Source of the DNA: a virus
Taxonomy: Duplodnaviria > Caudoviricetes
Reading direction: 5' to 3' (one strand)
Virus record (IMG/VR): IMGVR_UViG_3300030329_001853
Location: 1 to 24,731 of that record
Length of the DNA stretch: 24,731 nucleotides
Part shown: positions 17,882 to 21,668 of the stretch, piece after piece
Layout: each line of letters opens with the position of its first letter
Numbering within the stretch: the first letter of the stretch is position 1
The notes under the pieces: generated by a model
What the model was told of the DNA's origin: nothing
Seen by the model: only the letters and a program-made list of their open reading frames with translations
The model's database searches: none
Made by a program: the position numbers and the translations under genes

Positions 17882-19060
17882 TTACCAGCCGTTAGTGTTC
17901 TCACCAGATGTAGCAGGAGCTGCACCAGCGATAAGTTCTACACAAGCAGCAGGGTTTAGATAGTCGGCGCCCATAGCGAGTCGTCCCAGTATCACGTCTC
18001 CTTGGTAGACAACTGAAACATCACCTGATGTAACTTGTACTTGAGGTCCGATTGCTTCAACACATGCAGCGCCTTCCTTCTGGAAGATCAAACCACAGGA
18101 GTGAGCAAACTTATTAGCTGCACCGTAGTCGTTACGTGAACCATAGTTAGTTCCAGAAACAGCTGCGTCATCAGCTATAGAAGGTCCAACGAAGTCACCC
18201 ATGTTTGTAGGTGAGGTTTCGCCAGTACTTTCTGCACCAGCTGAACCGCTGAACTCAGTACCAAACTTACCGAAGAACGGAATGTTCATCGACTTGAAGA
18301 TCTTGATACCAGCGATTTCAATGATTCCTTGACCACCTTGTAGTGCAGAACCTTGAACGTCACGGTTAACTAGCCCATTAGTTCCAACGTTTTGGATAAG
18401 GGTGTAGTACTGACGTGGGTTCAATACAGCTACACGTCCATCACTGCTTACACCTTTCTCATCTAGAGCAGCTGCAGCGTCATAGAAAGCATCGATTAGC
18501 TTAGCTGAATCATAAGCGTTGTTAGCTTGGTCAGTGGTACCTACACGGATTTGAGTTCCGCCTGGTTCTGCATAGCCTGACTTAGTGATTGGGCTAGCCG
18601 CTCTAGCTCCACGTGTGATAGCACGGAAGATCTTACGGTCATATGTTTCTGCGAGGGCGTAGCCGATCTTGCGGCTAATCTCTCCCCTCAATTCATAATG
18701 AGCAAGAGTCTCATCTAGCTCATACACGAATGCTGAACTGATTAATAGATCATCAACGGTGATAGTCTTCTCTGCTACTGGTGGTGCATTCTCGTCGTTA
18801 CCTAGTATGGACTGGCCTGGAATGTGATATTCGGCTTTCGTGCGACCCGTGTAGATGAACTGCAAAGATTTGCCGTTCTTAAGGGTACGCTTCATAACTA
18901 GGTCACGAGCAATCGTATTGTGCTGGAAGCCTTTGAATAGCTCTCCAGAAAAGATCTTCAAATAAAGATCTCTGTTATTACTTGCGTTATACGAGCCAGT
19001 ATCACCAACACGACCTAAAAAGGTAGGATTGGAATTGGCTACGTTCGTTTGCTGTGCCAT
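17882..19060 (-). CDS. Major capsid protein, T7 gp10-like (392 aa)
   Basis: LYLKIFSGE, RTLKNGKSLQF, EKTITVDDLL, GYALAETYD and MGADYLNPAACVEL motifs typical of cyanopodovirus capsids. Confidence 0.97.
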   Translation of the reverse strand: MAQQTNVANSNPTFLGRVGDTGSYNASNNRDLYLKIFSGELFKGFQHNTIARDLVMKRTLKNGKSLQFIYTGRTKAEYHIPGQSILGNDENAPPVAEKTITVDDLLISSAFVYELDETLAHYELRGEISRKIGYALAETYDRKIFRAITRGARAASPITKSGYAEPGGTQIRVGTTDQANNAYDSAKLIDAFYDAAAALDEKGVSSDGRVAVLNPRQYYTLIQNVGTNGLVNRDVQGSALQGGQGIIEIAGIKIFKSMNIPFFGKFGTEFSGSAGAESTGETSPTNMGDFVGPSIADDAAVSGTNYGSRNDYGAANKFAHSCGLIFQKEGAACVEAIGPQVQVTSGDVSVVYQGDVILGRLAMGADYLNPAACVELIAGAAPATSGENTNGW

Positions 19061-19118: not shown

Positions 19119-19207
19119 GTGGTCTATCCCACCGTCTAGACGGCATAAGGGTATCGGCGTACCGGCCAAATGCCAATGCAAAGGGAGTCCGACTCTGAGG
19201 TGCTCCC
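19119..19207 (-). promoter_or_regulatory. Candidate structured RNA leader upstream of the capsid gene
   Basis: GC-rich non-coding block with stems GGGAG/CUCCC, GGCAU/AUGCC enclosing CGG-UACG-CCG, the palindrome CCGUCUAGACGG and GUGG/CCAC. Confidence 0.55.
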
Positions 19208-19214
19208 ATTACTG

Positions 19215-19370
19215 TTACTCCCCTAAGAGAGCTTCTTCTAAAGATTGAGGTTCTTTATCTTCGTCTACACCTGGAGGTTGGTAGTCATGTGGAAGAGTAT
19301 CTTTTACTTCTTCATTCTCAGGACTAAGCCAAGTTACCGAAGCGGATGGTGTCTTACTTTGTTGCGCCAT
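19215..19370 (-). CDS. 51-aa acidic hypothetical protein (MAQQSKTPSASVTWLSPENEEVKDTLPHDYQPPGVDEDKEPQSLEEALLGE)
   Basis: Translated by hand; TAATG coupling to the upstream ORF. The PQSLEEAL ending resembles the small pre-capsid gene of P-SSP7-like phages. Confidence 0.75.
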   Translation of the reverse strand: MAQQSKTPSASVTWLSPENEEVKDTLPHDYQPPGVDEDKEPQSLEEALLGE

Positions 19371-19468
19371 TACTCAGATTCCTCTTCTTTCTTTTCTTCT
19401 TTTTTCTCTTCTTTCTTTTCTTCTACAGGCTTTTCATAACGCCTTGCTGGTCTTTGATCTGATTGCAT
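19370..19468 (-). CDS. 32-aa charged peptide (MQSDQRPARRYEKPVEEKKEEKKEEKKEEESE)
   Basis: Translated by hand; TAATG overlaps at both ends; contains an EEKK tandem repeat. Confidence 0.6.
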   Translation of the reverse strand: MQSDQRPARRYEKPVEEKKEEKKEEKKEEESE

Positions 19469-19602
19469 TAGTAAATTTCCGTAATTTCACAAGGTGTACA
19501 AGATCTACAGTGCTGATGTTCTTTCATATGTAGACCTTCAATGAAAATGAAAATGGATAGGAGTCCGAAGATCCCTACCCATAGTTCATTAAACTTCTTC
19601 AT
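19468..19602 (-). CDS. 44-aa single-pass membrane peptide with His/Cys tail (MKKFNELWVGIFGLLSIFIFIEGLHMKEHQHCRSCTPCEITEIY)
   Basis: Translated by hand; TGATG overlap with the beta-barrel stop; basic N-terminus followed by a hydrophobic segment. Confidence 0.65.
   Translation of the reverse strand: MKKFNELWVGIFGLLSIFIFIEGLHMKEHQHCRSCTPCEITEIY
19542..19580 (-). terminator. Possible terminator or stabilising hairpin just after the beta-barrel gene, inside the 44-aa ORF
   Basis: GGGUAGGGAUC-UUCG-GACUCCUAUCC (11-position stem, one mismatch, cUUCGg loop) followed by AUUUUCAUUUUC. Confidence 0.4.
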
Positions 19603-19970
19603 CAGAAGCTATACTTAATACCAACTTTGGTTCCCCATGAATTATCATCATCGGTATCAGAGTCAGCAGTCAGTAATGCGAGTTCTCCATATACATCTAC
19701 TTTAGAAGTAGCTGCAAAAGAGCCACCAACTTTGCCAGAGAATCTGGTGTCACCTTCATCAGCTCCATCCACTGCAACGATGGCTGGACCACCTTGTACA
19801 TAGAATGATGCTGTATCTGTACCACCTTCATATCCAACATGAACGTCAGTAGTTGTGCTGGTATAGTCGTTTCCGGTTAGCGAGGAGTTGGCCTCGACGT
19901 TTACATAAACACCAGCTGATGCAGGTGTCGCTAGTGCTGTTAGAGCCAGTGCGGCAAGTGCTAATTTCAT
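19602..19970 (-). CDS. Secreted outer-membrane beta-barrel-like protein (122 aa; true start most likely MKLALAALAL at 19970, not 20060)
   Basis: Sec signal peptide MKLALAALALTALATPASA with an AxA cleavage site, alternating beta-strand pattern, acidic loops and a C-terminal ...KVGIKYSF beta-signal ending in Phe. It resembles small picocyanobacterial/cyanophage OMP-like proteins. Confidence 0.8.
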   Translation of the reverse strand: MKLALAALALTALATPASAGVYVNVEANSSLTGNDYTSTTTDVHVGYEGGTDTASFYVQGGPAIVAVDGADEGDTRFSGKVGGSFAATSKVDVYGELALLTADSDTDDDNSWGTKVGIKYSF

Positions 19971-19977
19971 TTTGTTT

Positions 19978-20079
19978 TTACTTTGTTTTGATGTAAGGCA
20001 CACCACGATACTTAAGAAGTACTCGCTTTCTAATAGCTTCTCGCTCTTTAAGTAGAGCATTAAGTTCTATAGAAGACAT
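19978..20079 (-). CDS. 33-aa DUF4278-like 'downstream peptide' (MSSIELNALLKEREAIRKRVLLKYRGVPYIKTK)
   Basis: Translated by hand; GGAG Shine-Dalgarno 9 nt upstream; LxYRGVxY motif; immediately 3' of the riboswitch-like RNA. Confidence 0.8.
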   Translation of the reverse strand: MSSIELNALLKEREAIRKRVLLKYRGVPYIKTK

Positions 20080-20092
20080 AGCTTTTTCTCCA

Positions 20093-20148
20093 GTACCTAG
20101 ACCCCGTTCCATGCCTAGGTTTCATGCGTCCCGAAGGATGAACGGACG
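20093..20148 (-). ncRNA. Glutamine-II riboswitch (Downstream-peptide RNA motif) candidate
   Basis: Minus strand CCGUUC-A-UCC-UUCG-GGA-CGCAUGAA-ACCUAGGC-AUG-GAACGG-G-GUCUAGGU. P1 is CCGUUC/GAACGG, there is a cUUCGg hairpin, and an 8-bp pseudoknot ACCUAGGC/GUCUAGGU. It sits upstream of a YRG peptide. Confidence 0.8.
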
Positions 20149-20155
20149 TGGTGTT

Positions 20156-20224
20156 TTATTTTTTCTTTGTAGATTTTTTATAAGGTAATTTAACTACCTT
20201 TCCGCCTACAATTTTTTTAGGCAT
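20156..20224 (-). CDS. 22-aa Lys-rich micro-peptide ([22 protein letters not shown])
   Basis: The ATG overlaps the last codons of psbA by 8 nt, and the ORF fills the gap to the riboswitch almost exactly. Confidence 0.5.
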
Positions 20225-21266
20225 TTGATGTTACCTCCGTAGCTGCTAAGTCAAGAGGGAAGTTATGAGCATTACGCTCGTGCATAACTTCCATACCTAG
20301 ATCGGCTCTGTTCAGGACGTCAGCCCAGGTAGGGACAACTCTTCCTGTAGAGTCGAGGATGGATTGGTTAAAGTTAAACCCGTTGAGATTAAAAGCCATA
20401 GTGGCGATTCCCATAGAGGTAAGCCATATGCCAACGACGGGGAAAACAGCCAAGAAGAAGTGTAAACTACGACTATTGTTGAAAGAAGCATATTGGAATA
20501 TGAGTCTCCCAAAGTAACCATGAGCCGCAACAATGTTATACGTCTCCTCCTCTTGACCGAATTTGTATCCATAATTAGGAGACTCTGTTTCGGTTGTTTC
20601 TTTGATAATTGAACTGGTAACCAATGAGCCGTGCATAGCACTGAACAAAGATCCACCAAATACCGCCGCAACACCCAACATATGGAAAGGGTGCATGAGG
20701 ATATTATGTTCTGCTTGAAAGACAAACATAAAGTTGAATGTCCCTGAGATCCCCAACGGCATACCGTCAGAGAAACTTCCTTGTCCGAATGGATATACCA
20801 AGAACACTGCGAAGGAAGCTGCGACTGGTGCGGAGTAAGCAACACAAATCCATGGCCTCATTCCCAGTCGATAACTAAGTTCCCATTGGCGTCCCATATA
20901 AGCGCAGATGCCAATGAGGAAGTGGAAGACGATAAGTTGATATGGTCCTCCGTTGTAGAGCCATTCATCAAGCGTTGCAGCCTCCCATATAGGGTAGAAA
21001 TGGAGACCAATAGCATTACTGCTTGGGACAATCGCTCCAGATATAATGTTGTTTCCATAAAGTAATGAGCCTGATACTGGCTCTCTGATACCGTCAATGT
21101 CGACGGGAGGTGCGCCTATGAAGGCGATGATAAAAGCAGTTGCTGCTGTTAATAGTGCGGGGATCATGAGCACACCGAACCACCCCACATAGAGGCGGTT
21201 GTTAGTGCTCGTTACCCAGTCACAAAATTGGTTCCAATTAGAACGTTCTAATGTGGCTGTTGTCAT
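20217..21266 (-). CDS. psbA: Photosystem II reaction-centre protein D1 (349 aa)
   Basis: Unmistakable D1 sequence ([47 protein letters not shown]). YZ and the Mn-cluster ligands are present; there is no intron. Confidence 0.99.
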
Positions 21267-21509: not shown

Positions 21510-21668
21510 CTATTTAGCTATTTGATCTGGTGTTATTTTATTATTTTTTCTCTTTTTCTTTAATTCTTCTCTTTGTGCTTCAAGCATTCTTTTTAATGCT
21601 TCTCTTTGTGCTCTTCTTTTGTATGCGTCATACTGTTCAACATCACGCATTGATTGAGTAATTGCCAT
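21510..21668 (-). CDS. 52-aa basic helical hypothetical protein (MAITQSMRDVEQYDAYKRRAQREALKRMLEAQREELKKKRKNNKITPDQIAK)
   Basis: Translated by hand; the ATG is 2 nt after the scaffold stop, and the ORF fills the gap before the hli leader. Confidence 0.65.
   Translation of the reverse strand: MAITQSMRDVEQYDAYKRRAQREALKRMLEAQREELKKKRKNNKITPDQIAK

Follow-up and report, generated by a model that had tools for sequence, protein, structure and literature searches.

We analyzed a 24,731-nucleotide (nt) stretch of viral DNA, hereafter the window, which is a 24.7-kb fragment of a T7-like cyanopodovirus with a virus record of its own (IMGVR_UViG_3300030329_001853; 38.9% G+C). On its minus strand, between psbA and the major capsid gene, it carries a Glutamine-II (Downstream-peptide) riboswitch directly followed by a gene for a 33-amino-acid (aa) peptide with a YRG motif, and these two elements are the fixed unit of the locus. 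Judging from sequence comparisons, we assign a probability of roughly 0.65 to a reading in which high glutamine in the host makes the riboswitch turn on YRG peptide translation, while the outer-membrane barrel gene and the micro open reading frames (ORFs) that follow would be passengers of a variable psbA island. The original prediction, made from the letters of the window alone, had described a nitrogen-sensing cassette of riboswitch, YRG peptide, secreted beta-barrel gene 7 nt past the peptide stop and three chained micro-ORFs; all of these parts were confirmed on the minus strand, the barrel as a member of the known family PF24653/DUF680. Papers are cited by PubMed Central (PMC) or bioRxiv identifier, and what is credited to them reflects the parts of each source that were available.

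The aptamer, with P1 capped by a UUCG loop, P2 and a pseudoknot, occupies 20095..20147 (minus strand). It gave the sole Rfam match in the window (RF01704, full model, positions 1-60, E 1e-9; score 50.6 bits, cut-off 33), in agreement with the identity first proposed for it, and its core pattern had 0 occurrences in 100 Markov-resampled windows. All ligand-site bases are intact (C1-C5, G18, C19, A33 and G35-G42, numbered as in PMC6698751). Across 53 phage copies, whose kinship can inflate covariation, 10 of the 11 P1 and P2 pairs varied on both sides and 97.8% of cells were paired; none of 500 shuffles reached this score, and slid controls also fell below it. The window copy shares its linker type with the crystallised glutamine-binding aptamer (PMC6698751), a type present in 83 phage copies and outside the eight commonest host linkers. 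By sequence and covariation, the window RNA belongs genuinely to a known riboswitch family and is well conserved. Other members of this family bind L-glutamine and turn expression on (PMC6212724, PMC6698751), and the aptamer of the host MED4 is an ON switch in a fusion to green fluorescent protein (PMC6212724). The NtcA box has been lost from the phage loci, being found upstream of 4 of 117 phage riboswitches vs 83 of 96 in hosts.

We surveyed what travels with this riboswitch from four starting points. A pattern scan of viral contigs gave 120 riboswitch loci from 5 of 64 collection parts (about 1800 estimated in all), and counts use the 111 whose contig extends 200 nt or more downstream. The capsid-first sample comprised the closest 80 capsid loci, of which 51 reached psbA, hli or scaffold and were not dereplicated; the barrel-first sample comprised the closest 80 of 219 barrel loci. 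The host sample held 120 riboswitch loci from 12 of 64 parts of a genome collection, 97 of them with a YRG ORF. A YRG peptide followed all 111 phage riboswitches, starting 21-29 nt beyond the core. Among the 51 capsid-first loci, 48 had a compact riboswitch by our own profile and one a split form (49/51), leaving two with neither. The barrel came directly after the peptide at 18 of the 111 riboswitch-first loci and 13 of the 51 capsid-first loci, where it occurred anywhere in 19. The 80 barrel-first loci showed the riboswitch-peptide-barrel order 21 times, the barrel before psbA 33 times and a myovirus-like setting 20 times; two more were podoviral with psbA out of view and four were cut off. 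In 112 distinct complete riboswitch-to-capsid intervals we counted the barrel 21 times, the 51-aa micro-ORF family 43 times and the 44-aa family 26 times, in several orders, and 65 intervals had none of the three. No barrel gene stood beside any of the 120 host loci. The exact order of the window does recur in other podoviruses (21 of the 80 closest barrel loci and three cultured phages). A dedicated nitrogen-sensing envelope module with a fixed order of parts was not borne out: the barrel is seldom behind the peptide, micro-ORF content and order vary, and the barrel occurs independently of the riboswitch, both before psbA (33/80) and in myovirus-like loci with no riboswitch nearby (20/80). 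This independence is the outcome that the original prediction had itself named as its refutation. The barrel and micro-ORFs are probably carried along as passengers instead of belonging to a single module under nitrogen control. At one viral-contig locus, L130, the riboswitch precedes a 60-aa, two-repeat, host-like peptide and has no T7-like neighbours; this may be host DNA.

The peptide gene lies at 19978..20079 (minus strand) and encodes a basic helix and one DUF4278-type repeat. Its ribosome-binding region (20080..20094, minus strand) contains GGAG at 20088-20091, 8 nt before the ATG, which itself sits 16 nt past the end of the RF01704 model; GGAG or GAGG was present in 88 of 124 distinct phage leaders. 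Phage peptides were at most 22 aa long at 74 of the 111 loci and longer at 37, the shortest form having 13 aa. The repeat motif, L/Y-x-YRG-x-x-Y, occurs once in the window peptide and once in 89 of 90 phage peptides, vs two or three times in 53 of 56 distinct host peptides. Codons at the YRG motif vary synonymously, and its conservation at the amino-acid level holds whatever gene follows. Pfam returned no match for the window peptide, DUF4278 (PF14105, cut-off 25.3 bits) not being reached, and the ESM Atlas gave only a lead to DUF4278 at 0.76. The repeat motif, together with sub-threshold DUF4278 matches of the peptides of all three relatives examined (14-17 bits, model positions 32-57), upholds the DUF4278-like character suggested at the outset.

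What the peptide does is less firmly indicated. It stops 7 residues past YRG, without the C-terminal IF7-like region that binds glutamine synthetase. DUF4278 spans the N-terminal part of IF17, which stabilises that protein and is dispensable for inhibition (PMC6316151); because the phage peptide matches only this dispensable part, plain inhibition of glutamine synthetase in the manner of IF7/IF17 is an unlikely role for it. Synechocystis gifB, which encodes IF17 behind a type 1 riboswitch, offers an analogy in its glutamine-ON control of a DUF4278 protein. Its aptamer class differs from that of the window, and the phage peptide does not have the C-terminal, glutamine-synthetase-inhibiting part (PMC6316151). 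Tentatively, and at odds somewhat short of even, the peptide could be a one-repeat mimic of host glutamine-induced DUF4278 proteins and would, as transcription in the host falls off, act in trans on the partner of those proteins; this is the weakest part of the proposed mechanism.

We performed an Rfam scan on 17 chosen loci of cultured phages and found the riboswitch in 10 (P-SSP7, S-TIP37, P-SSP10, S-CBP1, S-RIP2, P-GSP1, NATL1A-7, S-TIP28, P-SSP2 and P-SCSP-R27W). S-SBP1 has a split form, described below, and S-B28, S-CBP2, S-CBP42, P60, Syn5 and S-SRP01 had no riboswitch within about 3 kb of the capsid gene. The gene order of the window is also that of P-SSP10, NATL1A-7 and P-SCSP-R27W, and the barrel lies before psbA in S-TIP37, S-RIP2, P-SSP2 and S-SBP1. 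The riboswitch is annotated in none of the 17 records, and the peptide is absent from most. The P-SSP7 copy (NC_006882.1/19588-19642) was already in the alignment of Weinberg 2010 (PMC2864571), the available text of which does not discuss it. It belongs to the same family and occupies the same site between psbA and capsid as the window copy; unlike the window, P-SSP7 has a 17-aa peptide and neither barrel nor micro-ORF chain in the island. In the literature, with subscription journals thinly covered, we found no account of the spread of the riboswitch among podoviruses, of this gene order or of genes nested in the riboswitch. Thus far on record for one phage since 2010, the riboswitch is far more widespread in these phages than the literature we could consult says.

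Among described systems, the closest is the Prochlorococcus MED4 Yfr6 type 2 switch with its IF17-like DUF4278 ORF (PMC6212724, PMC2864571, PMC6698751), which shares with the window the sequence and fold of the aptamer, the ligand site and a short YRG ORF directly behind. The window copy differs in being phage-borne, in lying within a polycistronic head region, in having one YRG repeat and in having no NtcA box; phages are not mentioned in the available text of PMC6212724. Glutamine aptamers have likewise been reported in the marine phage Melnitz (PMC9004378) and in T4-like cyanophages (PMC9964418), with function only proposed in the parts seen. The Melnitz aptamer is of the glnA type in a myovirus, whereas that of the window is type 2 in a T7-like podovirus.

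The barrel gene (19602..19970, minus strand) encodes a 122-aa cyanophage outer-membrane half-barrel of the family PF24653/phrog_417/DUF680 (PhCOG173). It matched PF24653 at E 3e-42 (144 bits against a cut-off of 27, positions 4-122) and its PHROG at E 3e-39. The N-terminus is signal-peptide-like, the C-terminal Phe was invariant in 30 sequences, and the predicted model has six strands (mean pLDDT, the model confidence score, of 81), with DUF680 proteins as the best structural matches. A fold search against the PDB returned nothing at E 0.001, the best match being OmpX at 5e-3. For DUF680 proteins, a dimeric 12-strand outer-membrane barrel has been predicted and superinfection exclusion put forward as a hypothesis (bioRxiv 10.64898/2026.10.24.761521). 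The family has also been tied to phosphate stress (PMC6224464) and to pho boxes; every S-TIM4 population evolved on WH8102 had it inactivated, and two peptides of the protein were found in one virion preparation (PMC6224464, PMC9146016).

The barrel family occurs in 469 GenBank phage records, and among the 50 listed nearly all were large myoviruses. The window barrel shares with PF24653/IPR056410/DUF680/PhCOG173 the sequence family, the signal-peptide-like start and the six-strand half-barrel. Descriptions of DUF680 come from T4-like myoviruses, where its contexts include phosphate-related ones, and in our loci these copies mostly have their own T4 late promoter (within 160 nt at 14 of 20 myovirus-like loci) and a Shine-Dalgarno (SD) sequence (12/14). 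Unlike them, the window barrel has no SD and follows a riboswitch peptide within a podovirus island. Upstream of the barrel at the 20 myovirus-like loci, the available sequence (up to 1.5 kb) contained neither an aptamer core nor a YRG ORF, Rfam gave no RF01704 match upstream of the barrel at the 19 scanned, and the contigs carrying them, which are fragments, had no RF01704 match above cut-off. Sub-cut-off RF01704 matches (48 nt, about 26 bits) occurred more than 10 kb from the barrel in the contigs of L053, L075, L076 and L079 (G009, G015, G016 and G019). A two-hairpin leader about 70 nt upstream of the barrel was common to L044, L047, L052, L068, L069, L072, L077, L078 and L081; it had no Rfam match at cut-off, and a PhotoRC-II element, suspected upstream of myovirus-like barrels, found no such match either.

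To trace the origin of the riboswitch-peptide-barrel order, we built two barrel trees. On the first, a quick tree built from 102 columns of 99 barrels and with many forks left open, the gene-order label had to change three times. In a second tree of 53 thinned rows, with four long branches omitted, a strict single clade for the window order was rejected (approximately unbiased test, p-AU 0.010); a branch with support 84 did, however, set all window-order rows but L119, plus two myovirus-like rows, apart from the rest. On these trees the order would be mostly one inherited event, in a lineage that includes the cultured P-SSP10 and NATL1A-7, with perhaps one more origin. A mainly single origin neither shows nor excludes selection.

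Several observations count against reading the riboswitch as the peptide's switch and the barrel as its passenger. Folding revealed no general expression platform: mean accessibility of the ribosome-binding site was 0.44 when leaders folded freely and 0.46 under constraint, which raised accessibility in 15 of 124 distinct phage leaders and lowered it in 0. The start codon was paired to aptamer bases in just 9 of 101, and a conserved fold sequestering the ribosome-binding site was not found. The pseudoknot pairs were preset by the search pattern, so that their invariance is no test, and the samples are skewed to close relatives and partly dereplicated. L119 looks like a second origin of the order, and a diverse lineage has kept this order, always without an SD (43/43) and with -4 to 17 nt between peptide and barrel, which fits real coupling. 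The window's own lowest-energy fold conceals the start codon, but with a z-score of 0.08.

Were the coupling selected, the peptide in this lineage would be a leader that feeds ribosomes to the SD-less barrel and micro-ORFs, so that an envelope module is made only at high glutamine. Besides the possible second origin in L119, this alternative has on its side that the spacer is always short, almost only A/T and without SD, that the order is common to two barrel subgroups and to three cultured phages, and that RNA-library contigs from two studies (one only guessed to be RNA) link riboswitch, peptide and barrel, with DNA carry-over possible. Most riboswitches, however, have no barrel behind the peptide, the peptide motif is conserved irrespective of the following gene, and micro-ORF order varies. 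The barrel is moreover equally SD-less where it lies before psbA (29/29), behind unrelated, mostly Lys-rich ORFs. Since its start has no SD in either place, SD-less initiation is a podovirus trait and not a sign of riboswitch control. We consider selected coupling doubtful. Re-initiation at the barrel from the peptide stop is possible; with the barrel as a passenger, its SD-less start may draw some ribosomes from that stop as a side effect of one ancestral rearrangement.

The run evidence consists of contigs only, without start sites, strand or levels, compared over a stretch upstream of the 3' micro-ORFs and the capsid leader. Four sequencing runs, three of them on record as RNA, had contigs over the barrel, and in two runs a contig piece joined the riboswitch, short peptide and barrel of a relative; no RNA run contained half of the query words. 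Contigs in two runs show a 1-nt shorter form of the window's peptide-to-barrel spacer. Stop-codon read-through into the barrel was rejected: although 31 of 47 distinct spacers have a length divisible by three, that of the window measures 7 nt (19971-19977), and a second stop lies in four of the in-frame spacers. In the barrel subgroup of the window, the spacer is a multiple of three (3, 6, 9 or 12 nt) in 19 of 19 tree rows (L003, L006-L011, L013-L020 and L023-L026).

In relatives, and not in the window, the P1 loop of the Glutamine-II riboswitch can enclose a whole gene of 54-61 codons. Rfam misses these split forms at cut-off, and they were first visible as partial hits (S-SBP1 gp32, L001:5612-5822; L255 and L256); a scan for the split shape then gave 120 loci (L418-L537; about 300 estimated in all). 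The shape was present in 115 of these, 103 of them distinct, with a nested ORF in 96 and a YRG peptide behind in 95; the seven distinct loci without a nested ORF look like chance matches. At each of these 96 loci the nested ORF carried a W-x-G-G motif and P1 had three pairs or more. Four or more P1 pairs formed at 82 of 103 loci, vs 34 on average and never more than 46 after swapping arms among loci, and P1 closes with covariation across an insertion of 161-187 nt, both aptamer halves being kept. The nested ORF, phrog_628 in S-SBP1, often starts within the 5' arm, and its stop mostly falls in the linker that binds the ligand. By scan estimates there is about one split form per six or seven compact copies; scans for other insert lengths in the P1 loop returned 0 and 2 candidate matches. 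Riboswitches of S-SBP1 and others that had been taken as degenerate are in fact split by the inserted gene.

The split forms bear on two further readings. If the riboswitch were a relic acquired from a host, or a structural RNA that has lost its glutamine sensing, the want of a clear switching fold would be in keeping with it, and the literature, as far as available, yielded no assay of a phage copy with known provenance. Yet the ligand-site bases are all kept, the stems covary, both halves and the P1 pairing persist even across the inserted gene, and the crystallised glutamine-binding aptamer has the phage-type linker (PMC6698751), and we hold a relic to be very improbable. In the second reading, almost all marine T7-like cyanophages might use the glutamine sensor as a plug-in slot, in which genes behind the peptide, such as the SD-less barrel of the window, would be turned on by translational coupling under nitrogen-replete conditions, and a gene in the P1 loop (S-SBP1 and about 100 relatives) would compete with aptamer folding and be switched oppositely. 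This seems to us unlikely on balance.

The original prediction also tied the riboswitch to the nitrogen-costly capsid gene (17882..19060, minus strand; Pfam PF21703, E 8e-69), whose product is about 72% identical to the capsids of S-RIP2 and P-GSP1. That link proved to be only positional. A riboswitch that times or gates synthesis of the capsid, the most nitrogen-costly product, for example through mRNA processing or stability, would fit the presence of the capsid gene within 1.4 kb downstream in 59 of 62 riboswitch loci with enough DNA and the 65 of 112 intervals without a detected passenger family between peptide and capsid. It would also fit the minus strand of the window, where no terminator was found from riboswitch to capsid; nor was a sigma-70 promoter found there (counts at chance level). 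The distance between the two ranges, however, from about 230 to more than 1400 nt, and 6 of the 17 cultured loci have neither an Rfam match nor a split form. The capsid gene has a conserved hairpin and leader of its own (19119..19207, minus strand), overlooked earlier; of 165 distinct regions upstream of capsid genes, 106 carry one of its two motifs and 143 the other, and the element persists at both L263 and L281, which have no riboswitch. In P-SSP7 the expression class changes at the capsid gene, genes 13-28 being middle and 29-51 late, with capsid as gene 29 (PMC7885011 citing Lindell 2007). Because the switch would act on translation, it would not gate capsid transcription. Capsid control by the riboswitch is unlikely, and gating of this kind improbable. 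The hairpin and leader had no Rfam match and are possibly a processing site or late-transcript start. Since tRNA-Gly or tRNA-like sequences take the place of the hairpin in L288 (2913-2983), L209, L211 and L212, the hairpin is suggestive of a mimic of a tRNA arm.

Behind the barrel lie the three micro-ORFs, all on the minus strand. The first (19468..19602) encodes 44 aa, with a single predicted membrane helix and, after it, a conserved E..H motif, and matches phrog_27060 weakly. Its family has 38 distinct homologues in the sampled loci and occurs without the barrel in 9 of 112 intervals; a function search gave weak Pfam matches only, a blank in the ESM Atlas and five unnamed homologues. A strong hairpin lies within it (19550-19582, minus strand, z -3.2), and contigs of relatives from RNA libraries have another short hairpin-like sequence in place of this stretch. 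The second ORF (19370..19468) encodes 32 acidic, low-complexity residues and showed 11 synonymous vs 5 non-synonymous codon changes in three relatives. Its profile overlaps that of the third (19215..19370), a 51-aa acidic ORF of phrog_23119 (PHROG E 7e-6), and by sequence it is likely a short relative of that family. The 51-aa family has 101 distinct homologues and occurs without the barrel in 24 of the 112 intervals. By their distribution, the 44-aa and 51-aa ORFs are shuffled passenger families of the island. The 1-nt stop/start overlaps that chain the micro-ORFs are present as originally described, but they are not special: genes are tightly packed throughout the window, and 13 of its 19 other junctions overlap or lie no more than 2 nt apart, three of them overlapping by 1 nt.

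On the minus strand, the gene order of the window runs portal, scaffold, 52-aa ORF, hli, psbA, riboswitch region, capsid and tail genes. psbA, encoding D1 (20217..21266, minus strand), was identified from its translation and its equal position in annotated cyanopodoviruses, in which the psbA-adjacent region of T7-like members has been described as a variable island (PMC7885011 citing Labrie 2013). A 22-aa Lys-rich ORF (20156-20224, minus strand), likewise overlooked earlier, overlaps the psbA stop and lies between psbA and the riboswitch; a homologue search of the sampled loci found it only in the identical locus L002, and Lys-rich ORFs are frequent in the psbA island. The 52-aa charged ORF before hli (21510-21668, minus strand) is, like it, without a noteworthy family match.

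T7-like cyanophages with psbA are among the commonest viruses of the ocean. In them, the switch would be read on the phage polycistronic hli-psbA transcript, and a metabolite sensor that 49 of 51 related capsid loci have retained gives a direct handle on how a phage responds to host nitrogen; S-TIP37 carries this sensor, and a gene mutant of that phage exists (PMC12695635). The one-repeat phage peptide is the minimal form of DUF4278 and could reveal what this domain binds in hosts. The link to the barrel matters only if coupling is shown, and cultured phages exist with each gene order. If the sensor does serve as a plug-in slot, podoviruses would tune host-envelope and accessory genes to nitrogen status without a regulatory protein.

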